Of a stretch of DNA of 64,000 nt, positions 1 to 58,959 are shown one piece after another; within the stretch, counting starts at the first letter, position 1; each line of letters opens with the position of its first letter. Position numbers and translations under genes: made by a program. This DNA comes from a virus. The stretch is from positions 1,686 through 65,685 of the IMG/VR virus record IMGVR_UViG_3300005077_000018. One strand, 5' to 3'. The notes under the pieces were generated by a model. The model saw only the letters and a list, made by a program, of their open reading frames with translations, searched no databases and was not told where the DNA came from.

Positions 1-16
1 GCGGTTATTTCATACG

Positions 17-25
17 TGCTAAAAT
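17..25 (+). promoter_or_regulatory. Extended -10 promoter candidate for the small-ORF operon
   Basis: TGcTAAAAT about 55 nt upstream of the AAGGAGG RBS (66-72) and ATG 79. Confidence 0.4.
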
Positions 26-78
26 AGGGTAGGTAGGAATTTGCCTACCCTCAACCACCAGCCTAAAGGAGGCTCACA

Positions 79-225
79 ATGGAACTCATTATTGCCGTAG
101 TCAAGTTACCCCTAACCCTGGTTCAAGCCTGGGTTGAGGCCATGCGTCAGGATCCGTTCGTTACCCTGGCGCTTACGGTCATCGGTTTAGCCGTACTTCT
201 CGCAGTTGTTTCACGGGGGCGGTAA
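79..225 (+). CDS. 48-aa membrane peptide
   Basis: RBS AAGGAGG at 66-72; MELIIAVVKLPLTLVQAWVEAMRQDPFVTLALTVIGLAVLLAVVSRGR; hydrophobic C-terminal helix; below the ORF-track cut-off. Confidence 0.7.
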   Translation: MELIIAVVKLPLTLVQAWVEAMRQDPFVTLALTVIGLAVLLAVVSRGR

Positions 226-302
226 TGGACATCATCGTCATGATCGTGGTTATCGCATTTCTCGTCCTTTTCGGAATTTTGACTTTTGGGGGGTTGGCAT
301 GA
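225..302 (+). CDS. 25-aa hydrophobic peptide
   Basis: TAATG overlap with upstream stop; MDIIVMIVVIAFLVLFGILTFGGLA. Confidence 0.55.
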   Translation: MDIIVMIVVIAFLVLFGILTFGGLA

Positions 303-355
303 ACCTTCTTCTGGTCGCTATCCTGGTTCTGGTTCTGTTCTGGAGCTGGTCATGA
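299..355 (+). CDS. 18-aa hydrophobic peptide
   Basis: ATGA overlap at both ends; MNLLLVAILVLVLFWSWS. Confidence 0.45.
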   Translation: MNLLLVAILVLVLFWSWS

Positions 356-537
356 TCACTCTTGAGAAGTCACTCATCAGGCACGTACGAAATGTAGTCG
401 TGGTTCGCGAGCCTACCGCAGTCGTTTTTCCGTGGCGATTGTATGCTGAGTTCATGGGTGAACGTTTCCTCATGGCTTTCTCAGACAACGAGGATGAGAT
501 TCGGGGTCTTGAATCCCTGATCACTTCGGTAAATTAG
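352..537 (+). CDS. Hypothetical protein (61 aa)
   Basis: ATGA-coupled start; C-terminal part of track ORF 286..537. Confidence 0.55.
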   Translation: MITLEKSLIRHVRNVVVVREPTAVVFPWRLYAEFMGERFLMAFSDNEDEIRGLESLITSVN

Positions 538-549
538 TCGTGGTATTTC

Positions 550-587
550 GGAAAGACCGTCGTGCCGTGAGGTTCGGCGGTCTTTTC
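550..587 (+). terminator. Stem-loop with GNRA (GTGA) tetraloop after the small-ORF operon
   Basis: AAAGACCGTCG (552-562) pairs with CGGCGGTCTTT (575-585), plus inner GCC/GGT stem and GTGA loop; weak U tract. Confidence 0.55.
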
Positions 588-594
588 AGTTGTT

Positions 595-702
595 GTGGTA
601 AGATCCTCAAGAGGACGCCTACTCTGAGACTGAAAGACGCTCAGGCTTCAGTCAGCATGGTATCGGGTTCAGACGCTCGTGGTAAGACCTTCAAGAGGAC
701 GC
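595..702. repeat. 24-nt direct repeat, two copies 84 nt apart, among five GACGC motifs
   Basis: GTGGTAAGATCCTCAAGAGGACGC (595-618) vs GTGGTAAGACCTTCAAGAGGACGC (679-702), 22/24 identical. Confidence 0.85.
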
Positions 703-824
703 TCAGTCTCAGACGCAAGGGTCTTCAGGCCCGCTTGCCCGCTTGCCCGCGCTGTCTCAGTCGCGCATGGGCAAAAAAATGGGCAACGGGTTGCCCCGTT
801 GCCCCGTTGTCCCGTTGCCCTTGC

Positions 825-1058
825 CTATCGCACTTCCCCTATATAGGCCCCGGTTCTGGCGTAAAATACAACTGTAGCTTGCCAATCTTGCATGGCATCG
901 TAGTATTGTTTGTTATCGTAGTACTCGTTTATGGCAACATCCGGGTCCACTTCTGCGGGTTGCCCCGGTTTTGCGGCGGCCATTTTTAGGTTTTGTATCG
1001 CGGCAATTGCCGCATCCAGCGCATCTTGCAAGTTGTCGTAAGCCTGTTTGTTTTCCAT
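825..1058 (-). CDS. Hypothetical protein (77 aa)
   Basis: AGGAG RBS upstream of ATG on - strand; normal protein composition. Confidence 0.75.
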   Translation of the reverse strand: MENKQAYDNLQDALDAAIAAIQNLKMAAAKPGQPAEVDPDVAINEYYDNKQYYDAMQDWQATVVFYARTGAYIGEVR

Positions 1059-1073
1059 GGTATTGTACTCCTG

Positions 1074-1102
1074 TTTGGTGGTTTGGTGGTTTGGTGGTTT
1101 GG
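1074..1102. repeat. Tandem 8-mer TTTGGTGG x3.6
   Basis: Copies at 1074, 1082, 1090, partial at 1098. Confidence 0.9.
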
Positions 1103-1141
1103 GCAGCCGGGTTGCCCCGGCTGCCCTATAGGTGGTATTGG

Positions 1142-1576
1142 TTATTTAGCGGCGGTCGCTTTTACAAGCGCCCTAAGCGCTTTCGCGGCGGTCGCGGCCA
1201 CATATTTGCGCTTGCCCCAAACTACCACTTCAAAACCTTTTGCGGGTTGTTTTGTGCCTGCATCCCCGCCGCAAAGGGCCACGGCAAAACCACGGCTTTT
1301 TCCAAGCTCTTGTGCCAAATCGCACAACTTGGTAAGGGGCATGTATTTCGGGTCGTCGGCGGGGTTTGCGCTTGCCAATTGGTAGTACTTGCCTACTTTG
1401 CCAAGGTGGGCTAAACAAGTACTCCCAGTATCGTGGTTTGCTGGCTTGCCGCAGTACTGGCAAACACCAGTTTTGCCCGCAAAGCGCGGTTCGCGGCCAA
1501 TAAGCGGGCTTGTTGGCGGGGTTGGTGGGGTTGGTGGGTTGGTGGGGTTGGTGGGGTTGGTTGGTTGGTCGGCCAT
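1142..1576 (-). CDS. Hypothetical protein with PTN/PPT-repeat N-terminus and CxxC...H...C...H motif; paralog of 59021..59536
   Basis: AAGGAG RBS; CQYC and HDTGSTCLAH; shared GGD...F.VV..G.RKY motif. Confidence 0.8.
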   Translation of the reverse strand: MADQPTNPTNPTNPPTPPTPPTSPLIGREPRFAGKTGVCQYCGKPANHDTGSTCLAHLGKVGKYYQLASANPADDPKYMPLTKLCDLAQELGKSRGFAVALCGGDAGTKQPAKGFEVVVWGKRKYVAATAAKALRALVKATAAK

Positions 1577-1638
1577 CGTGTGCTCCTTTTTGGGTTGGTT
1601 GGCGCTTGCCCTATTGCACGCGCGCTTGCCCTAAAAAT

Positions 1639-1649
1639 ATTTTACCACA
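1639..1649 (-). promoter_or_regulatory. Extended -10 promoter driving the island genes
   Basis: Reverse complement TGTGGTAAAAT about 60 nt upstream of ATG 1576. Confidence 0.55.
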
Positions 1650-1790
1650 AACTACGTTTTGTGCTCGTCCACTTTTGCCCTTTTGCCCAAAAAGGGTAAA
1701 ATTTATCGTTTTAAGGGTATGACTGGTTCCAAAAATATCGGACCCGAAACTCGACTCTGAATTTGCCAGCACTATCCTTCAGAACTTCTT

Positions 1791-1801
1791 TGTGCTATAA
1801 T
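1791..1801 (+). promoter_or_regulatory. Extended -10 promoter, probably leaderless, for the packaging operon
   Basis: TGTGCTATAAT; ATG 1808 lies 7 nt after the TATAAT. Confidence 0.6.
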
Positions 1802-1807
1802 AAAGGT

Positions 1808-2170
1808 ATGGACAACCCGATACCCACTATCCTCGACCCGAACGACCGAAGCATCTCTGACGTCACCCGCAGAATGTTGGCCGACGCCTTCCGCGATCAG
1901 GGGCTTCAGGAAGTGGTCTACTTTCCTGACGGCGGAAGAAAGATGTCTTACGCCTCGGCTCTCTCCAAAATGATCTGGCAGGCTCTAGTTGAGGGAGAGA
2001 TGTATTTCGCTGATGGAACTGTCGTCAAAGTGTCGGGTGAGATGAAACAGTGGATAGAGATTTTGAAATTTGTAAGTACTCACATCGACGGAGCTGCTGG
2101 AACTAACAATTCCGTCGGTCAGGTCAACATATTCAAGGTCTACAAGGGAATTGATACAGACAGGGTATAA
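1808..2170 (+). CDS. terS: Putative terminase small subunit
   Basis: Size and position two genes upstream of terL; ATG start in frame with track ORF 1763. Confidence 0.5.
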   Translation: MDNPIPTILDPNDRSISDVTRRMLADAFRDQGLQEVVYFPDGGRKMSYASALSKMIWQALVEGEMYFADGTVVKVSGEMKQWIEILKFVSTHIDGAAGTNNSVGQVNIFKVYKGIDTDRV

Positions 2171-2463
2171 TGAGAAATGATCTACACCCTACCGATCGCT
2201 CTCTTCCCGAACATGACACCCTCAACCCTCGAGGAGGAGAATTCGACGAAGAGTTCGCCGTCGCCAGTGAACTTCGGGTCATCGACCTCGGAGATTCCCT
2301 CACGATCGGAAGAGTTTTCCTGGACCCGTATGGGGATCCCTATTCCTATGAGACCGACACCCTCTACGCAGACAATCTTTCCGGTCTTCGGGAGATGGTC
2401 AGAGAGATTACTCTCGCTTTGAGCAGACCTGCTGTGAATTCTCGAGACATGATCCAATGCTGA
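2170..2463 (+). CDS. Hypothetical protein
   Basis: TAATG-coupled ORF between terS and terL. Confidence 0.6.
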   Translation: MRNDLHPTDRSLPEHDTLNPRGGEFDEEFAVASELRVIDLGDSLTIGRVFLDPYGDPYSYETDTLYADNLSGLREMVREITLALSRPAVNSRDMIQC

Positions 2464-3773
2464 GAGCTTTTGCTGATCCAACTCTAGATCCCAGAAATGC
2501 TCCGTATCAGCCCTTCGGGGTTGCGGAAGATTTGCTGTATGACCAGAGCGATCAGATCATTCTGTGCGGTCCATCGGGAACGGGCAAGTCCAGAGCTTGT
2601 TTGGAGAAGCTTCATCTGATCTGCTCCAAATACGCCGGAACCAGAGCTTTGATGGTTAGAAAGACTAGAGCTTCTCTAACTCAGTCAGCTATGGTGACTT
2701 TTGAGAAGATGGTCGTTCCTCAAAATGACTCGGTTTCTTTTAGAACGGGAGAGCAAGAGTACAGATATGTGAACGGTAGCGTCATAGCTGTAGGCGGAAT
2801 GGATAAGGCAATCAAGATCATGTCTACGGAATACGACATAATCTATGTCCAGGAGGCTACCGAGCTAAGTGAAGAGGACTGGGAAACTCTAACAACCAGA
2901 GCCAGATTCGGAAGAGTTCCATACAATCAGGTTATCGGGGACTGCAATCCGTCATTTCCTTTCCATTGGATCAAGCGGAAATCTGACAGAGGAGAGCTCA
3001 AACTCTACAATAGCAGACATGAGGACAATCCTGTTCTATTCAATCAAATTTTGAGGGACTGGACTCCCAAGGGAAGAGCCTATCTAGCTAAATTGGAGAA
3101 GCTGTCGGGTGTACGGTTCAAGAGATTGAGATTGGGAATCTGGGCCGCCGCTGAGGGAATGATCTATACGGAGTACGATTCTAACGTTCATCTACTGGAC
3201 AGATTTCCCATTCCCGCCGAGTGGGATAGATATTGGGTCGTTGACTTCGGTTTCACAAATCCCTTCGTATGGCAAGCCTGGGCGATTGATCCTGAGGGAA
3301 GAGCCTACCGTTTCGCTGAGATCTACCGTACTCAGCTCCTTGTGGAAGATGCCGCCGCTATGATTTCTGCTTGGAGAAGAGAGAACTCTGAGCTTCCTCC
3401 AGCGGCTCTAATTTGCGATCACGACGCAGAGGACAGAGCTACTCTTGAGCGACATCTCAATCTGACTACGGAGCCAGCTATAAAGAATGTCAGCGGCGGT
3501 ATTCAGACGGTCAAGGAGAGACTGAGGATCAGAGAAGACGGGAAAGCCAGAATGTATTTTCTGAGAGACTCAGTTTGGGATGTCGATGAGGAATTGGTTG
3601 ATGCTATGAAACCCTACTCTACTGAGCAGGAATTTGATGCGTATGAGTGGGCTGATTCCAGGAAGCGTGACGAACCCAAGAAAGTTGATGATCATGGCAT
3701 GGACTGTACCAGATATCTTTCGGTTCATCTTGATAACTTCGTAGACGCATGGTCTATGGGAATGAGTTCATAG
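2457..3773 (+). CDS. terL: Terminase large subunit (PBSX-like)
   Basis: Walker A GPSGTGKS, Walker B-like YVQEATE, DCNP, nuclease VDFGFTNP and DDHGMDCTRY. Confidence 0.95.
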   Translation: MLRAFADPTLDPRNAPYQPFGVAEDLLYDQSDQIILCGPSGTGKSRACLEKLHLICSKYAGTRALMVRKTRASLTQSAMVTFEKMVVPQNDSVSFRTGEQEYRYVNGSVIAVGGMDKAIKIMSTEYDIIYVQEATELSEEDWETLTTRARFGRVPYNQVIGDCNPSFPFHWIKRKSDRGELKLYNSRHEDNPVLFNQILRDWTPKGRAYLAKLEKLSGVRFKRLRLGIWAAAEGMIYTEYDSNVHLLDRFPIPAEWDRYWVVDFGFTNPFVWQAWAIDPEGRAYRFAEIYRTQLLVEDAAAMISAWRRENSELPPAALICDHDAEDRATLERHLNLTTEPAIKNVSGGIQTVKERLRIREDGKARMYFLRDSVWDVDEELVDAMKPYSTEQEFDAYEWADSRKRDEPKKVDDHGMDCTRYLSVHLDNFVDAWSMGMSS

Positions 3774-3792
3774 ACTTAGCAAGGAGATTGAC

Positions 3793-5763
3793 ATGGTTCG
3801 TTCAGACCAGGATAAATTCAAAACACAGGAACCGGAAGATTTCTTCGCTAATATGGTGAAGATTTATACCGATATAGACGAGGAGAAAGAACCTCCGTAC
3901 TCTAAGGATAGTCGTGCTCGGGATAAGTGGCTCATAGAATTTGCGAGGAGAGAGCCGCATTTGAGCGGAATACTGTCAAGTGTTACTGCCATTGATAAGA
4001 ACAGAGGGTGGTCTCTAATCGGATCGATGCGTCAGGTTAACAAGTACGCACGAATTCTTCACAATTTCAGAGTGTCTCCCGGTCTAAAGGGATGGCGTCC
4101 AGCTTTCGCTCAGCTGTCGGCATCATTCTGGGGCACGAATCTGGGCGCAGTTGTTGAAGTCGGTAGAGTGGGAGTTGATGGACCTGTTCAGGAATTCTAC
4201 ACAGCAGATCCGACTAAATTCGTCCTCGCAAAGGATCAAAAATTCCCTATTTACTATTATCCTTCCAATGGAAAGAGAATGAAGTGGAGAGATTCAGATT
4301 TCTTCAGGATTTGTTCTCTTCCTTCCATTCTCGAGGAGAACATGGGAATAGGATTCTGTGCCGTCGATCGTGCTGTTCAGCTTGCGAGACTGATGCTGGC
4401 TCTTTTTCGTCATGATGAGGAGATGCTTCTTTCTCGTGCTCCAAGAGGCCTTCTGCTTCTGTCCGGAATAAAGCGCGATCAATGGGAATCCGCTATGAAA
4501 GCAAGAGACGCGGAGCTGGATCAGGGTCAAATGAAGTATTTCGGAGCGATAGCCGTTCTTGCCTCAGCTTCCTCTACCGTTGAGGCGAAGCTCATGGCCC
4601 TTTCTCAGCTTCCGGCGGGTTTCGATCTGAAGATATGGATGGATATGATCATGTACGGATATTCTCTATGCTTCGGATATGACGCATCGGAATTCTGGCC
4701 GGTTCAATACGGTTCTTTGGGGAGAGGAAATGAAACACAGATTCAGCACGAGAAAGCAACCGGAAAGGGTCGTCTTGACTTCGTTCTCGGATTCCAGGAA
4801 CAGGTTACTGATTTTCTGCCTGAGTCTCTTGACTTTGTTGTTGAGCAGCGTGATGATCAGGGAGATCTTACTCGTGCGTCCGTTATTCAGGCGTGGGCGA
4901 ATGTTGCCAAATCTCTGTACACATCTCAATTGAACGGAATTCCTCTGGTAACGAATGAGGAGGCTAGAGTACTTCTGGCCGAGTACGGAGTTATTCCAGC
5001 TACGTGGAGTCCTACCGCCGATGCTTCTGCTACCGATATCGATGATGCTGACGACGAGGAAGTGGTCGATCAACCCGAAGACGAGGAGTCTGCAGGAGGA
5101 TCGTCAGAAGGGAACATGAAGCCAAAGTCAACCAGTCCTGACTCGGCTTCTCCCACCGCTGAGATGCTTCGGTCAGCTTACAAAACTCGAAGAATTCAAG
5201 ATTTAAGAGAGGTTGTTCTTCAGAAAGCTTCTGTGTTTGAAGCCGCGAGAAGATTTCCTAAAGAACCTATTGTTCAGTTTACTTACCCCGGGAATAATAT
5301 CCTGGAGCTGTGGAAATCAGGAGAGGATTTGATGAAACCTAGAGTTTGGGCTTCCATAGGAGATGTTGTTAGAAGAGCAATTCAGGAGAGTCTTCCTCCG
5401 GCAGTTGTCGGATCTGGTCTTGTTCAATCCAATCAGCCGACTCAACCTCAGATTGTGGTTGTAGATACTGAGGGAAGAATAGTTCAGCAAGCACGTCAAG
5501 AACCTTCCATAGTTGTGAACGTGCCCGAGCAGAATTTCCAGGTTGACTTGGAGAGGCTCGGTGAAGTCATAGCCAAACAACTGAAACAGGCTTCTGATCC
5601 TACGATAACTCTTACTCCGATCATTCAACTTCCAGAAATTCCTGTGATCGTAGAGAATAACGTAACTATCCAGGAGCCAGTTACCGAGGCGGTCGTAGAG
5701 GTCAACAGAGGATTCGACGGGAAGATTAAATCGGTAAAGAAAACTGAAAAGGTCATACGATGA
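3793..5763 (+). CDS. Portal protein with acidic linker and C-terminal extension
   Basis: Directly after terL, 656 aa, helical portal-like composition. Confidence 0.8.
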   Translation: MVRSDQDKFKTQEPEDFFANMVKIYTDIDEEKEPPYSKDSRARDKWLIEFARREPHLSGILSSVTAIDKNRGWSLIGSMRQVNKYARILHNFRVSPGLKGWRPAFAQLSASFWGTNLGAVVEVGRVGVDGPVQEFYTADPTKFVLAKDQKFPIYYYPSNGKRMKWRDSDFFRICSLPSILEENMGIGFCAVDRAVQLARLMLALFRHDEEMLLSRAPRGLLLLSGIKRDQWESAMKARDAELDQGQMKYFGAIAVLASASSTVEAKLMALSQLPAGFDLKIWMDMIMYGYSLCFGYDASEFWPVQYGSLGRGNETQIQHEKATGKGRLDFVLGFQEQVTDFLPESLDFVVEQRDDQGDLTRASVIQAWANVAKSLYTSQLNGIPLVTNEEARVLLAEYGVIPATWSPTADASATDIDDADDEEVVDQPEDEESAGGSSEGNMKPKSTSPDSASPTAEMLRSAYKTRRIQDLREVVLQKASVFEAARRFPKEPIVQFTYPGNNILELWKSGEDLMKPRVWASIGDVVRRAIQESLPPAVVGSGLVQSNQPTQPQIVVVDTEGRIVQQARQEPSIVVNVPEQNFQVDLERLGEVIAKQLKQASDPTITLTPIIQLPEIPVIVENNVTIQEPVTEAVVEVNRGFDGKIKSVKKTEKVIR

Positions 5764-6653
5764 GCGGTTTGTCCGTAGTCATTCCCTCCAGGAACGAGCT
5801 ATTTCTGGAAAATACAGTCAGGGATATTTTGACCAACTCAAGAGGAGAACTTGAGATCATCGTAGTTCTTGACGGATATTGGCCCAATCCTCCTCTACCG
5901 GACGATCGAAGAATCAGCATCATTCACAGAGGAAAAGCTAGAGGAATGCGTGACGGGATCAATTCAGCGATTAGTATAGCTCGCAACAAATTCGTCATGA
6001 AATGCGATGCTCATTGTCTATTCGCCGAGGGATTTGATGAAATTTTGAAGGCTGACTGCGACGATGACTGGGTTGTTATTCCAAGAAGATACTCTCTAAA
6101 TCCAGACACGTGGGGTCTAAATAAAAAGACTCCGGTAGACTATCATTTTCTGAGTTATCCGTGGTGGAAGCCTGAGATGCTCGGTCTTCATGGAACGGTA
6201 TGGACAGAACGGGCCAAGGAGAGGCTTCACATTACTCTGGACGAGGAAATGAGTTTTCAGGGATCCTGCTGGTTCACTACCAAGGATCATTTTATCAACA
6301 GAATAAGATTTCTTGAAGAGGAAGGATACGAAACTTTCATCGGAGAACCTCAGGAGGTTGGAAATAAAACTTGGTTGGGAGGGGGCAAGGTAATGGTCAA
6401 TAAGAAGACCTACTACGCTCATCTCCACAAGGGAAAGAGGTTCGGACGAGGATACTTCATGAGCAAAGACGAGACCTACCGAGGAAATCAGTTCAGTTGG
6501 AATTTCTGGTTCTACGACCAATGGTCTGACAGAATTCACGATTTATCCTGGCTAGTAGACAGATTTTGGCCCGTTCCATCCTGGCCTGAAAACTGGAAAG
6601 ACATTCATGAAAACGATATTAGACTTCGTAGAAAACCTGGAAAGTCCTCGTAG
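5760..6653 (+). CDS. Family 2 glycosyltransferase
   Basis: LSVVIPSRNE, EIIVVLDG, GMRDGINSA, KCDAH. Confidence 0.9.
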   Translation: MSGLSVVIPSRNELFLENTVRDILTNSRGELEIIVVLDGYWPNPPLPDDRRISIIHRGKARGMRDGINSAISIARNKFVMKCDAHCLFAEGFDEILKADCDDDWVVIPRRYSLNPDTWGLNKKTPVDYHFLSYPWWKPEMLGLHGTVWTERAKERLHITLDEEMSFQGSCWFTTKDHFINRIRFLEEEGYETFIGEPQEVGNKTWLGGGKVMVNKKTYYAHLHKGKRFGRGYFMSKDETYRGNQFSWNFWFYDQWSDRIHDLSWLVDRFWPVPSWPENWKDIHENDIRLRRKPGKSS

Positions 6654-40567: not shown

Positions 40568-40945
40568 ATGACTTCTATCGTGTCCTTTGATCCAGGAATG
40601 TCTACAGGAATATTTTTGTATCTGTCCGGAAATCCAGATTTTGAATACTCTTTGGTGAAGGATCCTTCTGGCTTGAAAAGATTTATTTCAACTTTCGATT
40701 TTGACATAGTTATCTGTGAAAGACTTCCTACTCCAGTAGCATCAGGTTTAGGATTTGTAGTTCAGATTATAAAAGAAAGATTCGACGAAATTTATTTTAT
40801 TTCTCCAGGAGAATGGAAACCCCTGGCAAGAACTTGGAAACATCCTACTTTCAAAACTGAGCATGAGAAGGATGCTTACTTCCTTATGAGATACTGGTCT
40901 ACCTTTAAGAGAAAGGATTTTGTATGCGGAAAAAAGTGGCAATAG
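40568..40945 (+). CDS. RuvC-like Holliday junction resolvase
   Basis: SFDPGMSTG, VICE, HEKDA. Confidence 0.7.
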   Translation: MTSIVSFDPGMSTGIFLYLSGNPDFEYSLVKDPSGLKRFISTFDFDIVICERLPTPVASGLGFVVQIIKERFDEIYFISPGEWKPLARTWKHPTFKTEHEKDAYFLMRYWSTFKRKDFVCGKKWQ

Positions 40946-41715
40946 TCGGAGGAGGTCCGTCATCGTGGTTTGCAAGAATGGCTTGCTTCCACGCTGGAAT
41001 AGTTCCGACAGTTTTTGTAAGATCAGAGGTCAATCCTCCAGGAGCTTTCTGGATTCATGAACTTCCAGATTTTGCTCATCATCTTCCTATGTTCAAAATT
41101 TCAGTTAGAAGTTCGGGATCAAGAGAGATCTATAAGAGGAAACAGTGGGGAAACATAGATCTTCCTGAAAATTATAGATCTTCTTTTCCCGATCTAGAGT
41201 ACGAAACCTACGGAGCTGATCCGTCGACGGTAAGATCATTTGTTGATTCTGAACTCGCTCACGAAAGAATAATTTTAGAAGGAAATCTTAATGATGAGGA
41301 TCTTTCTTCTCTAAAGGATACTTATGACGAGGTTTTCTACACTTTTCCGTCTGAAAGATCAAAGCGAGAAAACTCCGAGTTCTTCCGGTTTATTCCCATA
41401 TTTTCCACCCAAACTCCTGTAGCTGATAGGCATATAAAAGAAATATTTTATGACGGCAGATCTCAATCTTCCGTTGTAAGATTTTCTGAAATATGGGGAA
41501 TGCAATTCAGAGAATATCAGGTGATTCGATATCCCAGTCAAGTGGACAAATTTGCAAAATCTAACTGTGTCTTCATTCCGGACATAATTCCTACAGATAG
41601 GAAACTATCTCCGCTGTCCCCTGAAGGAACAACTCCTATAGGAAGATTGGCATGTATGAACAGAACTATGCTGTCTCATCAGACCTATGAAATAGTGAGG
41701 GAAAAGTTATCATGA
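40924..41715 (+). CDS. FAD/NAD-binding oxidoreductase (UDP-galactopyranose-mutase-like architecture)
   Basis: KVAIVGGGPS Rossmann start; C-terminal IGRLA. Confidence 0.65.
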   Translation: MRKKVAIVGGGPSSWFARMACFHAGIVPTVFVRSEVNPPGAFWIHELPDFAHHLPMFKISVRSSGSREIYKRKQWGNIDLPENYRSSFPDLEYETYGADPSTVRSFVDSELAHERIILEGNLNDEDLSSLKDTYDEVFYTFPSERSKRENSEFFRFIPIFSTQTPVADRHIKEIFYDGRSQSSVVRFSEIWGMQFREYQVIRYPSQVDKFAKSNCVFIPDIIPTDRKLSPLSPEGTTPIGRLACMNRTMLSHQTYEIVREKLS

Positions 41716-42632
41716 ATTCTCCTTTCGATCTTCTTTACAAAAGACAGAGATTCTATAACACAAAATTGCGAGCAGAAAAGGGTGGAGACAGAATGACCTG
41801 GACTAAGACCTATCTCCTCGGTCTGTCGTCGGAAATAGGTGACGTACTGAAAAGTCTCGCATGGAAAGCGCATAGAAAGAAAGAGACAACGGAACCTTCT
41901 AGAGATAATCTTGCGTTCGAGTTCGCCGATCTTCTCAAATACGTCATGTCTCTTTCAGAACTGTGGGGCTTGGATTCCGACGAACTTATTTCTTTTGCGA
42001 ACAGGAAGAGCGCTCTTCTGGAAAGAATTAGCTACGAGGATTCTCGGGAAATTCCGAATGGCTCTACCGTTCTCATGGTAGATTTAGATGGAACAGTAGG
42101 AGATTGGAGATCCTCTTTTAGATCATTTCTTGAGAATCTTGGTCTAGATCTAGGTGAAGATTCAGAGAGGTCTCTTGACATAGAGATGGAACTAAATCTC
42201 TCCTACAGTGAATATATTGATCTAAAGGATAAATTCGAATCTACTGGAGGATACGCTAATCTGTATGCCTATCCTGACGCAGTTGACTTTCTTATAGAAG
42301 CTAAGAGCAGAGGTTTCAAAATAGTAGTCTTTACCGCTAGACCGGTGGATAAGCATAGAAGAATATGGTCGGACACTTTGGACTGGTTATACTCTAACGG
42401 AATTTCGGCTGATCAGGTACGCTTCGGCTCTGAAACCAGAATCGTCTATGCCAAAGAGTTGTCCTGGAACAATAGGGTATTTGTACTAGAGGACAATCCT
42501 CAATTGATGTTGAGAGCGGCGAACGCCGGTCTTACAGTAATAGGACGAAGGCATCAATATAACTCCGGTATAGATCATCCCGGAATACGCATGGTAGATT
42601 CATTTGAAGAGATAAATCTGGAGGATCTATGA
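41712..42632 (+). CDS. MazG-like NTP pyrophosphatase fused to HAD 5'-nucleotidase
   Basis: SEIGDV...EFADLLKY; VDLDGT, VFTARP, VLEDNP. Confidence 0.85.
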   Translation: MNSPFDLLYKRQRFYNTKLRAEKGGDRMTWTKTYLLGLSSEIGDVLKSLAWKAHRKKETTEPSRDNLAFEFADLLKYVMSLSELWGLDSDELISFANRKSALLERISYEDSREIPNGSTVLMVDLDGTVGDWRSSFRSFLENLGLDLGEDSERSLDIEMELNLSYSEYIDLKDKFESTGGYANLYAYPDAVDFLIEAKSRGFKIVVFTARPVDKHRRIWSDTLDWLYSNGISADQVRFGSETRIVYAKELSWNNRVFVLEDNPQLMLRAANAGLTVIGRRHQYNSGIDHPGIRMVDSFEEINLEDL

Positions 42633-42955
42633 GAACTAGGGAGGATATGGAAGCTCATTTTGAGCGTCGCGACAGTCAATTTGAAGACATCTGCACATCT
42701 TCAGCGGCCATCTTCGAGGTAAAGAACAGACAGTACAATGACGCGATATCTAGAACTGGTCTTCTCGGAGCGTGCGTAGAGATTGTAGGAGTAGCCGCTA
42801 GACTGGAACCTCTGATCATACAAAATTCAACTTTTGAGAGTGACTTTGAAACTGATTCCTTCAGATCTTCTGTTCTGAACGCTCTGAACGATCTTCACAA
42901 TTACGCAGTTATCGCCCTGATGATGCTTGAGGATCAAAACTGGAGGGGAGAGTGA
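42629..42955 (+). CDS. Nucleotide-modification-associated domain 1 (Nmad1/DUF1599)-like protein
   Basis: KNRQYND...G..G...RL...DLHNYAVIALMML. Confidence 0.7.
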   Translation: MRTREDMEAHFERRDSQFEDICTSSAAIFEVKNRQYNDAISRTGLLGACVEIVGVAARLEPLIIQNSTFESDFETDSFRSSVLNALNDLHNYAVIALMMLEDQNWRGE

Positions 42956-43764
42956 GAATTCTCGCGGGAATACCTACAAGACTACGAAATACCAGCGGAA
43001 AGATAGCTCAGACCCTGGCTACCGTAGTAGATGATGTCTTCGTAGTGTCTCAGGGAGCTGAAGTATGGGTTGACGAAGGAACGGACCTCTCAAAGATTCA
43101 TGTTCAGGAATATCCCGAAAATTTTGGAGTAATTCCTGCTAGAAATGAAATTCTTAGAGTTGCTTTCCAGGGAGACTACGACATAGTCATTCAGAGTGAT
43201 GATGACATTTCATTCCGTGAAGCTACTATTCGGAGAATGATAGAAATTCTGGATGAATTTCCAACCATAGGAGCTATAACCTCAGAAAGCAGAGCTTATT
43301 TCAACTGGAACAAGGATGTCAGAAGTACCAGACCATTTCTTCTTACTCCGTGCGCCGCTCAACTCTGGGCTGCTAGAGTACCGATCATGAGGGAAATCGG
43401 GTTAATGGAAGTTCCGTATTTAGAGGATAGAGAGCACGGTTGTCGACTCTGGAAGTCCGGATATCCGGTAGTTGAACTTCACGAAACTATAGATCTTGCT
43501 CATAATCCATTCATTTCAAGAACGAATGTCTCCTCGAAAATTGGTGGGCAGAATGAGGAGCACGAAGGAGATATTCACTCCGGTCTGAAAGCTGGAATAG
43601 AAGAAATGAACCTCAGACATGGAGACATAGTAAATCTCAAGTATCTCGGAATACGAGGAAGATCGTTTACTTCCAGATACAATTGGCCCAGAATGATAGA
43701 GTATGTAGATCGTCGATTCGGAAAAATTCTTGGGTATGCGGATTCCAAGGGAAGAGTCTTATGA
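42952..43764 (+). CDS. GT-A fold glycosyltransferase
   Basis: ILAGIPT, GVIPARNEIL, QSDDDI, YLEDRE. Confidence 0.75.
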   Translation: MRILAGIPTRLRNTSGKIAQTLATVVDDVFVVSQGAEVWVDEGTDLSKIHVQEYPENFGVIPARNEILRVAFQGDYDIVIQSDDDISFREATIRRMIEILDEFPTIGAITSESRAYFNWNKDVRSTRPFLLTPCAAQLWAARVPIMREIGLMEVPYLEDREHGCRLWKSGYPVVELHETIDLAHNPFISRTNVSSKIGGQNEEHEGDIHSGLKAGIEEMNLRHGDIVNLKYLGIRGRSFTSRYNWPRMIEYVDRRFGKILGYADSKGRVL

Positions 43765-44543
43765 GGATATTTTCTGCTATAAAAACTCTCGGAAGGAAGA
43801 CTGCTGGCAAGGTAGCTGATAATCTATCGAGGCTGTCAGAATGCGTAACAGTCGTGTCATTTGGAGCTACCGTAGAAACCAAATCTTCCAATACGAAAAT
43901 AATAGAGGTATTCGGAACTGATAAAGCTGAGGCTGAGAATATACTCATACAAGAATTTCTTGCCTCAGACTGTGACATCTATCTTTCTTGCGACGACGAC
44001 ATCATTGTTCCTGAGGTCTCCGCTCTTGCTTCTGCTAAGATCGTTTCAGAAATTCAATCCGCGGGAATAGTGTCCATTCCCGATCGAAAAACTTTCTTCT
44101 ATCAGTCTAAAGTAACCTGTAACAGAGGATTCAAACTTACGACCAATATATCGAAGATATGGATTGCTAGAAGAGAGGTTGTGAAAGAAGTTGGTTGGTT
44201 TAGGTTTCCCTTTGCAGAAGACAGAGATTTCATGGTACGAGCATATAGGGCTGGATTCGCTGTAGTTTCTCTGTCAGAATCTGTAGAGCAGTCCTGCAGA
44301 TCTCTATCCTCAAAAGAAGATCTTTCTGATTTCTCCAATTTTATACGAACCAAGGAAAAGCAGAAGAAAGCCATGATAAGTTTCTTCAGAGCTAACAAAC
44401 CTCTGGTAAGTTTGGAACCTGAGAATCCCTCAGAGAAAAATCCGTTCATAGTGAAGTATGATTGGAATCAACTCCTACTGATAGTTGTCAAAAGATTCGG
44501 AGTATCGGTAGGATATGAAGACTCTCTTGGAAGGAGATTTTGA
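43761..44543 (+). CDS. GT-A fold glycosyltransferase, paralog of the preceding gene
   Basis: SCDDDI, FAEDRD; similar C-terminus (GVSVGYEDSLGRRF vs GKILGYADSKGRVL). Confidence 0.7.
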   Translation: MRIFSAIKTLGRKTAGKVADNLSRLSECVTVVSFGATVETKSSNTKIIEVFGTDKAEAENILIQEFLASDCDIYLSCDDDIIVPEVSALASAKIVSEIQSAGIVSIPDRKTFFYQSKVTCNRGFKLTTNISKIWIARREVVKEVGWFRFPFAEDRDFMVRAYRAGFAVVSLSESVEQSCRSLSSKEDLSDFSNFIRTKEKQKKAMISFFRANKPLVSLEPENPSEKNPFIVKYDWNQLLLIVVKRFGVSVGYEDSLGRRF

Positions 44544-44544
44544 A

Positions 44545-45285
44545 ATGCCAGTTGTAAGAACAGCTTATGACGACCGTCACGATACAACGATTGAGTTCGT
44601 CACTTTGCCGATCTCTACCGTTGAGTTTGTTGACGGAATTACCGATCCGTTTCAGACAGTAGCCAAGATGTCTCGAGGCTACGGGGGGATCTACTCAAAT
44701 GATCCCTGTACAGAAGATGAAATTGCTCAAGCAATCAAGGATATGAATTCCACCAAACTTGGAACTCCTCTAGAAACGGTAGAGGTCATATTTTTGATCC
44801 ACGATGTGTCCAGAGCATTTACCCATCAACAGGTCAGAACTAGAATTGGTGCTTCATTCGTTCAGGAGTCCATGAGATTTCTGGGACATCAGGGTAAGTA
44901 TCGCATAATGGTCTCCGGGGAAATCTTCCGTAATTCAGAAGCCTTTGAAGCCTACCAGCAAGCGTGCTTCACGTCCATCTGGACGTACGAGGAAATGCTC
45001 AAAATCGGAATTCCAGGAGAGGATGCACGAGACATTCTTCCTCACGGAATATGTACTCGTTTGTTCGTTGGATACGCCATGAGTACTCTTCGTACCGTGT
45101 ATGCTCAGAGAATGTGTTGTCAGGCTCAGCCTGGTCAATGGCAACATATTCTTCGTCAGATGAAGAGGATTCTCATAGAGAAATACGGAGAACGAATGAC
45201 CGACATGCTTTCAGCTCCGTATGAGCGAGGAGAACCTTGCGGTTATCGGGCCAGCTTCGATCGTCCGTGTACATGGCAAAAATGA
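44545..45285 (+). CDS. thyX: Flavin-dependent thymidylate synthase-like protein with RTR variant motif
   Basis: TPLE, VSRAFTHQQVRTRIGASFVQESMRF, EDARDILP. Confidence 0.85.
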   Translation: MPVVRTAYDDRHDTTIEFVTLPISTVEFVDGITDPFQTVAKMSRGYGGIYSNDPCTEDEIAQAIKDMNSTKLGTPLETVEVIFLIHDVSRAFTHQQVRTRIGASFVQESMRFLGHQGKYRIMVSGEIFRNSEAFEAYQQACFTSIWTYEEMLKIGIPGEDARDILPHGICTRLFVGYAMSTLRTVYAQRMCCQAQPGQWQHILRQMKRILIEKYGERMTDMLSAPYERGEPCGYRASFDRPCTWQK

Positions 45286-45914
45286 AAACTCCAATCTGCG
45301 ATCTTGCTGAAAAATATGGAAGTGACAAGGCTCCCTGGGGTCACAACTATACTCCGGTATACTGGGATCTCATGTGCGAAAAGCAGTACGAAGAGGTGAA
45401 TATTCTGGAGATAGGAGTTTTGACAGGAGCTTCCATCAGAATGTGGCTAGAGTTCTTCCCTCGTTCCACCGTATTCGCTCTAGATGTAGACGAGGTAGCT
45501 CTAGAGAGGCTTCGAGGAACCAGTCACAGAATTATTCCTATGTTAGGATCTCAGACCGACTTCCTAGTATGGAATTCCTTTCCTAGGGTTTCTTACGATT
45601 TCATAATAGACGACGGAAGTCATATTCCCAATGACCAGATGAGGACATTCGAGGAAAATTTTCATCGCGTAAAATCCGGAGGATTCTGGATCATAGAAGA
45701 TACTCATTGTATGTTTCATGACAAATTCAATCCAACCAAAAGCTTCGAGTTATATACCTGGTTTTCGCAGCTTATACTTCTTCAGCAAATGCGAGGAGCC
45801 GAGGGCGGAAATTTTGATCGAGCTCTGAATTCTGGAATACTAATCGGAAGTCTTACCAGAATGATTAGATCCATACGAAGCTACAAATCTCTGATGATTT
45901 TCGAGAGGGCTTAA
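45282..45914 (+). CDS. SAM-dependent O-methyltransferase (MycE/TylE-like)
   Basis: KYGSDK...HNY, ILEIGV, FIIDDGSH, GGFWIIEDT. Confidence 0.85.
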   Translation: MKTPICDLAEKYGSDKAPWGHNYTPVYWDLMCEKQYEEVNILEIGVLTGASIRMWLEFFPRSTVFALDVDEVALERLRGTSHRIIPMLGSQTDFLVWNSFPRVSYDFIIDDGSHIPNDQMRTFEENFHRVKSGGFWIIEDTHCMFHDKFNPTKSFELYTWFSQLILLQQMRGAEGGNFDRALNSGILIGSLTRMIRSIRSYKSLMIFERA

Positions 45915-46609
45915 TGAACAAGGTAATCTCGTATACTACTAGCTCCTATTATCAAAATATGGAGGATATGCTTCATGAATGTTGCGAGAGATTCGATCTT
46001 CAACACGAGAGATATGATCAAGAATGGTTTCATTCCACCGAATACTATTCGAAACACAAAGACGTCGCTGATCAAAGAAGAATGGCAGGTTTCGCAATTT
46101 GGAAACCATTCATCATTCTGGACGCTTTGAGGAAGGTCGAAGAAAACGATGTAATCTGCTATCTTGACGCTAGCGTGGTATTCGAAGAAGACCCCAGACC
46201 ATTCTTCGACACAGTAAAATTCATAGCGGTAGGTAACGCAGACGACTGGGTGAATCGAGACTGGATAAAGAGAGACGCGTTTATCCTGATGAATGCCGAT
46301 AGCTCGGAATTTTGGAATGCAAGACAGATTTGGGCGGGTCAAATTGTTGTTAGGAAGAATAACGCTTCGATGACCCTCATGGAAGAATTCTTGACGTGGT
46401 GTGAAGATAGAAGAATAATAACTGACGAAGATAACGTCTGCGGTCTTCCGAATTTCTCGGGATTTAGAGAAAATAGATCCGAGCAAGCTATTCTCGCCAT
46501 AATGGCGGTCATCTATCCTGAATTCATTTCTCACGATCCTACCGTATTCCACGATTATGCTGGAAACTGGTCAGAGTGGATTCCTTGGTCCAAGAAGGGA
46601 AGAAGATGA
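45914..46609 (+). CDS. Nucleotide-diphospho-sugar transferase-like protein
   Basis: IWKPFIILDAL, CYLDAS, EQAILAI. Confidence 0.6.
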   Translation: MNKVISYTTSSYYQNMEDMLHECCERFDLQHERYDQEWFHSTEYYSKHKDVADQRRMAGFAIWKPFIILDALRKVEENDVICYLDASVVFEEDPRPFFDTVKFIAVGNADDWVNRDWIKRDAFILMNADSSEFWNARQIWAGQIVVRKNNASMTLMEEFLTWCEDRRIITDEDNVCGLPNFSGFRENRSEQAILAIMAVIYPEFISHDPTVFHDYAGNWSEWIPWSKKGRR

Positions 46610-51407: not shown

Positions 51408-51452
51408 TTTTATATGGCTTGTGTATTTTACGCATATAATCGAACGTTGTAG
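51408..51452. repeat. 45-nt dispersed element, copy A
   Basis: 40/45 identical to 56521-56565. Confidence 0.9.
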
Positions 51453-51520
51453 GGGCATGTTTTTGGTCATTAGGCAGGTACGCGCAAAAAATAGCCCCGT
51501 TTCAGGTCAAAAGTGGGCTA

Positions 51521-51549
51521 TTGCAAAATATTTTCTGGCGGGTTATAAT
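51521..51549 (+). promoter_or_regulatory. Sigma70-type promoter
   Basis: TTGCAA-17-TATAAT. Confidence 0.85.
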
Positions 51550-51597
51550 AAATTGTAGCAAAAAATTCTTTCGTCTTCAAGAGATAAGGAGGCTAGT

Positions 51598-58518: not shown

Positions 58519-58620
58519 AGTAGATTACTGGCGCTTTTTAGCATGGCAAACCACCTTTCACATGCCCCTGTAGGGCAAAAAACATGCCCAAATTTGCTCA
58601 TTTTTAGGGCGCAAGTACAT

Positions 58621-58959
58621 TTACCCTACCCCAAAATTTTCCGCTTTTAGGTCGTTCAATTTGATTCCCGACCAGATAGCCAGGAATAACTGAGCTCTGT
58701 TACGAAGCATAAGAGCGAGGCGATGTTTGCAGATGAATCTCATACGATAGCCCTGATCAGGACACTCGCAGATCTCGACGGTCGTCTTGTATTTCGTGAG
58801 GGGATCGGAGGATAGAGCCAACGCGAATGCTTTATTCAGACGACCAATCTCAACACCTTCTAGAGCTGGATCGTCTATACTATTCAGCATGAGCTTATAC
58901 GCTTCTCGTATATCTCTTTGTCTTTTTTCAGTCGCTCTTGCCGTCATGTTCTCTCCCAT
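58621..58959 (-). CDS. SWIM zinc-finger protein
   Basis: CECPD...CKHRLA. Confidence 0.8.
   Translation of the reverse strand: MGENMTARATEKRQRDIREAYKLMLNSIDDPALEGVEIGRLNKAFALALSSDPLTKYKTTVEICECPDQGYRMRFICKHRLALMLRNRAQLFLAIWSGIKLNDLKAENFGVG

Follow-up and report, generated by a model that had tools for sequence, protein, structure and literature searches.

The window that we analysed, a 64-kb stretch of DNA from an uncultured tailed phage covering positions 1686-65685 of a 70,023-bp source genome (G000), contains a locus which, as read from its sequence, is one complete minus-strand transcription unit of the sigma70 type, with a predicted promoter, two genes (A and B) and a predicted terminator (Table 1). 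A boundary element separates it from the divergent terS/terL operon. The whole unit lies within an "island" from which one dinucleotide is absent, and here we describe the extent and conservation of this purge, its effect on the encoded proteins and the explanations that may account for it.

Table 1. Features of the island, the candidate modification cluster and the second gene A paralogues (window positions unless another genome or locus is named)
Feature	Position	Strand	Basis or remark
GA-free (+) / TC-free (minus, coding) island	714..1720	.	Dinucleotide count
Strong intrinsic terminator (hairpin 804-781 plus a T-run): stem of 10 bp, 8 of them GC, with a GCAA loop and the tail ATTTTTTTGC	771..804	-	Sequence
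Gene B, 77 aa, acidic	825..1058	-	ORF
Intergenic GC-rich hairpin, GCAA tetraloop, without T-run	1101..1126	-	Read from sequence
Gene A, 144 aa	1142..1576	-	Common to all islands
5' leader with two TAGGGCAAGCGC repeats	1600..1632	-	Part of GCAAG enrichment
Predicted extended -10 promoter TGGTAAAAT	1639..1647	-	Sequence inference
Boundary element, island versus divergent terS/terL operon	1712..1766	.	Consensus GTCCGATATTTTTGTGA ... CCCTTA
Candidate pyrimidine-hypermodification cluster	40924..46609	+	Upstream of polA
ThyX-like protein	44515-45285		Pfam Thy1
Second gene A paralogue, G000	C1:187-723	+	Outside the window
Second gene A paralogue, G001	289-606		
Second gene A paralogue, L094	3953-4324		
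Second gene A paralogue, L002	1011-1382		

The ATG of the first gene follows 62 nt after the end of the predicted extended -10 element, and transcription would start near 1631-1632. An extended -10 of the form TGnTAxxxT occurs in eight of the ten islands scanned in this and related genomes (window included), ending 56-74 nt before the ATG (61-62 nt in L108, L110 and L001, 56 nt in L102, 69 nt in L103 and 74 nt in L104); the promoter of L094 differs, having a near-consensus TTGCAA-17-TATAAT that ends 61 nt before the ATG. At -35 the consensus hexamer TTGACA, a word that contains GA, is avoided, and both the island promoter and the terminator are conserved in relatives. On the coding strand the TC-free zone reaches ~88 nt upstream of the predicted start and ~60 nt beyond the terminator, with the first GA/TC steps returning within the boundary element. 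This element (GTCCGATATTTTTGTGA ... CCCTTA ... TTTTAGCCTGTTTTGG), with the island promoter on one side and the divergent terS promoter on the other, was aligned in L001, L004, L094, L102-L104, L108 and L110, and is kept even where the proteins are only ~40% identical.

The islands are also enriched in the pentamer GCAAG, which in ten of them (9,539 nt) occurs 131 times on the sense strand against 27 expected under a first-order Markov model (~5-fold), and at a density 9-40 times that of bulk DNA in most islands tested. The enrichment is strand-biased, CTTGC occurring only 27 times in the same ten islands, and clusters in leaders and 3' regions as arrays such as GGGCAAGCG (window 714-1720, L001, L002, L094, L103 and L105), which may be bound by the gene A protein or act as a strand-oriented signal of another kind. 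An Rfam search of window positions 1-2500 returned no credible family. As to physical genome ends, G000 has no terminal repeat and the "DTR" of G001, the second complete island-bearing genome, is an assembly overlap of ~127 nt.

The gene A product has a Pro/Thr-rich N-terminus followed by a Cys4-type zinc finger in which C39, C42, C54 and C85 are invariant. In an AlphaFold model (pLDDT 72) its C-terminal domain weakly resembles a winged helix of the MerR/Xis type, a resemblance that we treat as a lead only: the nearest solved folds to residues 77-144 are SoxR, CvkR, RacA and Xis, at Z scores of 5.4-4, a range that is not decisive. Membership of the MerR family itself was rejected, as the winged-helix-like domain is C-terminal and lies behind the zinc finger, whereas MerR proteins have an N-terminal HTH and a coiled coil. 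Pfam returned zf-BED for gene A at an E-value of 0.13 only, Pfam and PHROGs gave nothing useful for either gene, a Foldseek search of the gene A model against the PDB found no match, and an atlas structure search gave weak dsRBD-like hints only, with TM scores below 0.45. By eye, four distant members of the family (P0067, P0068, P0077 and P0096) carry an extra N-terminal domain that looks like the MutS mismatch-binding domain I. Gene B is an orphan, with no homologue among 5.8 billion proteins. Most islands add a small membrane peptide, in place of which the window has this acidic 77-aa orphan; the peptide follows gene A in L003 (4518-4673) and L108 (3084-3239), which share a TVPA(E/Q)GL motif, and as the second ORFs of L094 and L002.

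GA is the commonest dinucleotide of the genome (9.1%), with an observed/expected ratio (O/E) of 1.47 in the bulk against 1.44 for TC. On the + strand a GA at 712-713 is followed by the next at 1721-1722, and a letter count of the 1007 nt in between (714-1720) finds none, where 45.5 would be expected from the local base composition. The second-longest GA gap on this strand is 142 nt, whether the window or the full 70,023-bp genome is considered; a gap of 1,009 nt is therefore real and far beyond chance, as the preliminary description had held. That description had also put the TC on the + strand of the island at about 40, close to the 42 that we counted (O/E 0.54), and its report of exclusively AGY serine codons in both genes agrees with our codon counts. 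As both genes lie on the minus strand, the ban on the coding strand amounts to an absence of TC: Phe is encoded by TTT only, and ATC, GTC and CTC are all missing. Recoding the two proteins with bulk codon usage (20,000 draws) yields 26.7 +/- 3.7 sense-strand TC, with a minimum of 11, against the zero observed. The GC content of the island is 54%, compared with 45% for the genome. The flanks were considered as a possible barrier rich in GA and TC, which was ruled out, since they are not exceptionally rich in either.

Absence of TC is not the whole of the pattern. The 42 sense-strand GA in the island comprise 21 in Asp/Glu codons, many of them supplied by gene B, 12 in non-coding DNA, two of which fall in Shine-Dalgarno sites, and 9 at coding positions where GA could be avoided, against 25.2 predicted from bulk codon usage (P<2e-4). 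Glycine provides an illustration, GGA accounting for 1 of 17 Gly codons in the island against 65% in the bulk. Avoidable sense GA is thus also depleted, which indicates that both orientations of the GA:TC step are selected against, and the purely strand-specific exclusion that had been proposed for this locus does not hold; strict strand specificity is contradicted as well by the related islands L094 and L102-L105, from which TC and GA are both absent. An asymmetry is left over, in that sense TC stands at 0 of ~27 expected and avoidable sense GA at 9 of ~25 expected; TC on the coding strand is always removable by synonymous change and has reached zero. The antisense TCs retained in islands of the window's type share no longer context, all 5' and 3' neighbours being found. 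That both orientations are banned is consistent with an enzyme reading a 2-bp step in duplex DNA.

A megablast search of window positions 1-6000 against GenBank phages gave no match, and homologues of gene A are present in metagenomes. Together with the window, eleven loci with such a homologue form a set of twelve islands (Table 2) that contain no sense TC and 250 GA in 11,081 nt. Sense GA is gone or nearly gone in seven of the twelve, and its O/E ranges from 0.00 to 0.62 across the islands compared with 1.1-1.5 in the bulk. Palindromes without GA/TC show only moderate avoidance inside the islands (O/E 0.77-0.80), a result that is uninformative.

Table 2. Purge in the eleven islands found outside the window
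Island	Sense TC-free	Sense GA
L001	At least 603 nt	Mostly Asp/Glu codons
L002	321 nt	Near zero
L003	1,004 nt	Near zero
L004 (complete genome G001)	1,366 nt, sole such zone in 75 kb	Present
L094	1,023 nt	GA-free 939 nt
L102	813 nt	GA-free 602 nt
L103	929 nt	GA-free 899 nt
L104	1,371 nt	GA-free 1,295 nt
L105	Whole 1,110-nt contig	None at all
L108	852 nt	Present
L110	692 nt	Present

Wherever flanks are present (L003, L004, L094 and L108), the island is divergent from terS/terL; in L001 it lies at a contig end. Island-bearing relatives are 63-66% identical to this phage in TerL and 37-59% identical in gene A, and relatives at or below 55% TerL identity have neither the island, nor gene A, nor the ThyX-like gene discussed below. 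The recurrence of the same gene, promoter type and purge in phages this divergent points to selection and not to import. The preliminary description had suggested looking for the depletion in relatives with the same genes, and the outcome is divided: the eleven further islands are purged, whereas two homologues of gene A, in L109 (syntenic, 3732-4133, beside terS/terL) and in L111 (in a temperate context), are not, the former of which could serve as a natural contrast lineage. Enrichment of GA/TC in bulk DNA was also considered as a mark of island-bearing phages and ruled out, O/E values of ~1.1-1.2 being typical of island-less relatives too.

The purge extends beyond the DNA that would be transcribed. 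Across the islands scanned the TC nearest to the extended -10 is found 20-98 nt upstream of it, beside the boundary element (in L094, 41 nt upstream of the -35), and on the other side the purge runs past the terminator. Untranscribed DNA is therefore covered, which points to a constraint acting on DNA and not on RNA.

The consequences for the proteins are considerable. Among the ~90 family representatives listed, ~19 have less than 2.5% Asp+Glu, many of them with none, and the 204-aa copy of gene A in L094 lacks both residues entirely. A conserved GGDAG has become GGNAG in the copies of L102 and L103 and GGNGG in L094, and LCD.AE has become LCN.AQ; on a maximum-likelihood tree the acid-free state requires at least 3 changes. 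Every genome examined has, 1-4 kb away, a second copy of normal composition (Table 1); in G000 and G001 it belongs to a separate well-supported clade (100/100) and has its own extended -10 promoter. The protein thus needs to be neither acid-free nor TC-free, and the constraint belongs to the locus.

A different line of evidence comes from bulk DNA, for which we compared the counts of all 6-bp palindromes with those expected under a maximal-order Markov model (Table 3). In the island-bearing genomes palindrome avoidance of the ordinary kind is present, solely for sites without GA/TC. The first GA/TC word among the most avoided ranks 19 of 51 in G000 and 18 of 50 in G001, compared with 1st to 3rd in four island-less TerL relatives, a comparison limited by the higher GC content and mostly temperate lifestyle of the controls and by the relatedness of the island-bearing genomes among themselves. 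Neither these four relatives nor the unpurged L109 show the exemption. The avoided words differ by genome (CATATG, ACCGGT and TGGCCA in one, GCATGC, GGTACC and GTGCAC in another), in line with a difference in hosts, and have the absence of GA/TC in common. A protective modification at GA:TC steps would give rise to such an exemption.

Table 3. Observed/expected ratios of 6-bp palindromes in bulk DNA
Genomes	GA/TC palindromes	Other palindromes	Remark
G000 (island)	0.99	0.77	p=0.0024
G001 (island)	0.88	0.73	p=0.0061
Six smaller island-bearing loci	0.91-1.22 each, pooled 258/250.5	0.52-0.85, pooled 259/398.3	
Four island-less TerL relatives	0.49-0.85	0.80-0.86	
L109 (unpurged)	0.95	0.98	No avoidance at all

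Candidate enzymes for a modification of this kind are encoded in a cluster conserved in both complete island-bearing genomes (G000 and G001), which comprises a ThyX-like protein, a MazG-like NTP pyrophosphatase fused to a HAD/PNK-like domain, two GT-A glycosyltransferases and a SAM methyltransferase. Its tie to the island is putative, and the cluster could alternatively serve dTMP supply or protein glycosylation. The ThyX-like protein (Pfam Thy1, E 3.8e-25) carries RTR in place of the canonical RHR and has no sequence match in the PDB. Six-frame searches found no Tet_JBP domain (PF12851) in G000 and no C5 methyltransferase (PF00145) in G000 or G001; N6/N4 DNA methyltransferases were looked for and not found, nor was a phage RNA polymerase among the large proteins scanned. 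TGT/DpdA (PF01702), found in 14 of 14 control genomes, is absent from G000 and G001, which makes a 7-deazaguanine modification unlikely and extends to the whole genome an earlier remark that the window has no dpd genes. Phages M6, ViI and phiW-14 hypermodify thymidine in TG/TC contexts (PMC6449724), and the phage T-dioxygenase 5mYOX97 prefers NTC (PMC13229309). In these systems dinucleotide context sets the modified bases, TC being a documented context, and glycosyltransferases and thymidylate-synthase homologues take part, as those of the candidate cluster would under the reading proposed here. The TET/JBP (5mYOX) pathways differ, given that Tet_JBP and DNA methyltransferases are absent here, where the modification itself is hypothetical; GpC-directed pathways with a C5 methyltransferase, TET and glycosyltransferase represent a further context-specific modification (bioRxiv 10.1101/2023.12.21.572611). 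The cited papers on context-specific modification do not mention a modification-free gene island. Bulky groups in the major groove block the RNA polymerases of E. coli and B. subtilis in vitro (PMC4838386).

From these patterns we infer that the bulk DNA of the phage may carry a covalent modification in the TC/GA context, and that the island may be an immediate-early cassette kept unmodifiable for host RNA polymerase, a reading to which we give about an even chance. Probably the ThyX-like/glycosyltransferase cluster would make this modification, as a bulky hypermodification of pyrimidines. A cassette purged of the 5'-TC-3'/5'-GA-3' step, its coding strand free of TC and its other strand nearly or entirely so, could not be modified, so that on infection the host sigma70 polymerase, itself unmodified, might recognise the island promoter and transcribe the cassette directly from virion DNA. 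A DNA-binding product with a zinc finger and a winged helix would then be available first, and perhaps licenses transcription of the modified genome. The preliminary description had already envisaged a modification-free zone for host RNA polymerase, terminase or the ejection machinery; the sigma70-type unit, the extension of the ban over promoter DNA and the exemption of GA/TC palindromes speak indirectly for the polymerase version of it, and the strict strand specificity attached to it was not sustained. Counting against a modification, it leaves the asymmetry between sense TC and avoidable sense GA unaccounted for, other promoters of the genome contain TC/GA, for example the divergent terS promoter and that of the second paralogue, and some modified DNAs, such as those of T4 and SPO1, can be transcribed by host polymerase. 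A fuller scenario, in which siphophages hypermodify their DNA at TC steps and keep one immediate-early operon blank, the gene A protein lets host polymerase use the modified genome, and Asp and Glu have been lost in several lineages, is offered more tentatively, its chances falling short of even.

Alternatively, the island might have escaped attack at TC by an enzyme of the host, for instance a cytosine deaminase with a preference for TC, an ADP-ribosyltransferase of the DarT type or a nuclease of low specificity, in which case a first-expressed cassette that encodes the countermeasure must itself lack target sites, the coding (displaced) strand being the most exposed. The ban is absolute on the coding strand and weaker on the other in the window, L004, L108 and L110, and the over-representation of sense TT and AA (O/E up to 2.35 and 1.48) is expected from TC-to-TT erosion. 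We nevertheless regard such an escape as unlikely: duplex promoter DNA ahead of the predicted start is purged too, a bulk genome rich in TC/GA would stay exposed, the palindrome exemption is not predicted, and these hosts are not known to have a defence enzyme of this type that acts on phage DNA. The same excess of TT and AA would be left by recurrent TC-to-TT deamination of a heavily transcribed region, a passive footprint in which the TC-free state brings no benefit, and the Asp-to-Asn replacements (GGDAG to GGNAG) are indeed G-to-A transitions. However, Glu-to-Gln replacements are transversions, and these, together with exact zeros over 11 kb in twelve lineages and sharp boundaries at conserved elements, indicate selection; the GC content of the island is moreover higher than that of the bulk, and we consider a passive origin quite improbable.

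Selection might also act on RNA, an early mRNA without UC surviving a UC-cutting ribonuclease of host or phage. Sense strand and mRNA are one sequence, and the ban applies in all three frames and in the leader, as this would require; yet it continues 20-98 nt upstream of the predicted -10 and beyond the terminator, a UC-specific RNase gives no cause for a GA purge that takes away every Asp and Glu, UC is abundant in bulk phage mRNAs and the palindrome result is left without explanation, so that we hold an RNA-level cause to be very improbable. Scarcely credible, finally, is a recent import from a donor of differing composition. The GC difference between island and genome and the orphan status of gene B would suit a foreign origin, but the gene, its promoter type and the purge recur at the TerL and gene A identities given above, in the same place beside terS/terL in L003, L004, L094 and L108, and with a divergence in each island that matches that of its own genome; the conserved synteny refutes import in practice.

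Among known systems, the avoidance of restriction sites and other short motifs by phages is similar in that words on which an enzyme acts are removed by selection by way of synonymous codons, and in T7 asymmetric restriction sites show an orientation bias. GATC-free phiX174 is an example of motif avoidance (PMC5014478). Classical restriction-site avoidance, however, concerns mostly palindromic words of 4-8 bp that are depleted genome-wide, whereas the word in the island is a dinucleotide, its removal is local (~1 kb, one unit) and absolute and yields Asp/Glu-free proteins, and the remaining genome is rich in it. APOBEC3-type depletion of TC in animal DNA viruses is mild and genome-wide; the island shares with it the loss of TC and the enrichment of TT, and differs in being absolute, local, sharply bounded and inclusive of duplex promoter DNA. 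In the early region of T7, which has host-polymerase promoters, an anti-restriction gene is expressed first. The likeness here lies in a strong sigma70-type promoter, a small operon that would be expressed first and, in the window and L004, a small acidic protein, whereas the conserved product of the island is a zinc-finger/winged-helix-like protein and not an Ocr-like DNA mimic, and T7 has no dinucleotide purge. Our literature search found no description of a local dinucleotide-free early cassette, nor of acid-free proteins caused by one.

If the proposed modification is real, base composition alone would reveal the context of an unknown modification in uncultured phages, through the banned dinucleotide and the exempt palindromes, and would also reveal the first genes expressed. 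The island would in addition offer a clear example from nature of a protein whose amino-acid alphabet has been rewritten by a constraint at the nucleotide level, and an unmodifiable promoter-gene cassette beside modifiable DNA would provide a test system for the transcription of hypermodified genomes.

Two minor observations concern neighbouring and similar stretches of the window. Intergenic segments of ~140 nt at 51442-51581 and 58523-58663 are free of GA on the + strand yet contain TC, a pattern far weaker than that of the island. Just past the 3' end of the island, TC/GA-rich non-coding DNA at 597-720 holds two copies of a ~40-nt direct repeat (GGTAAGAyCyTCAAGAGGACGC...), and non-coding DNA similarly rich in repeats comes after the islands of L002 and L094.
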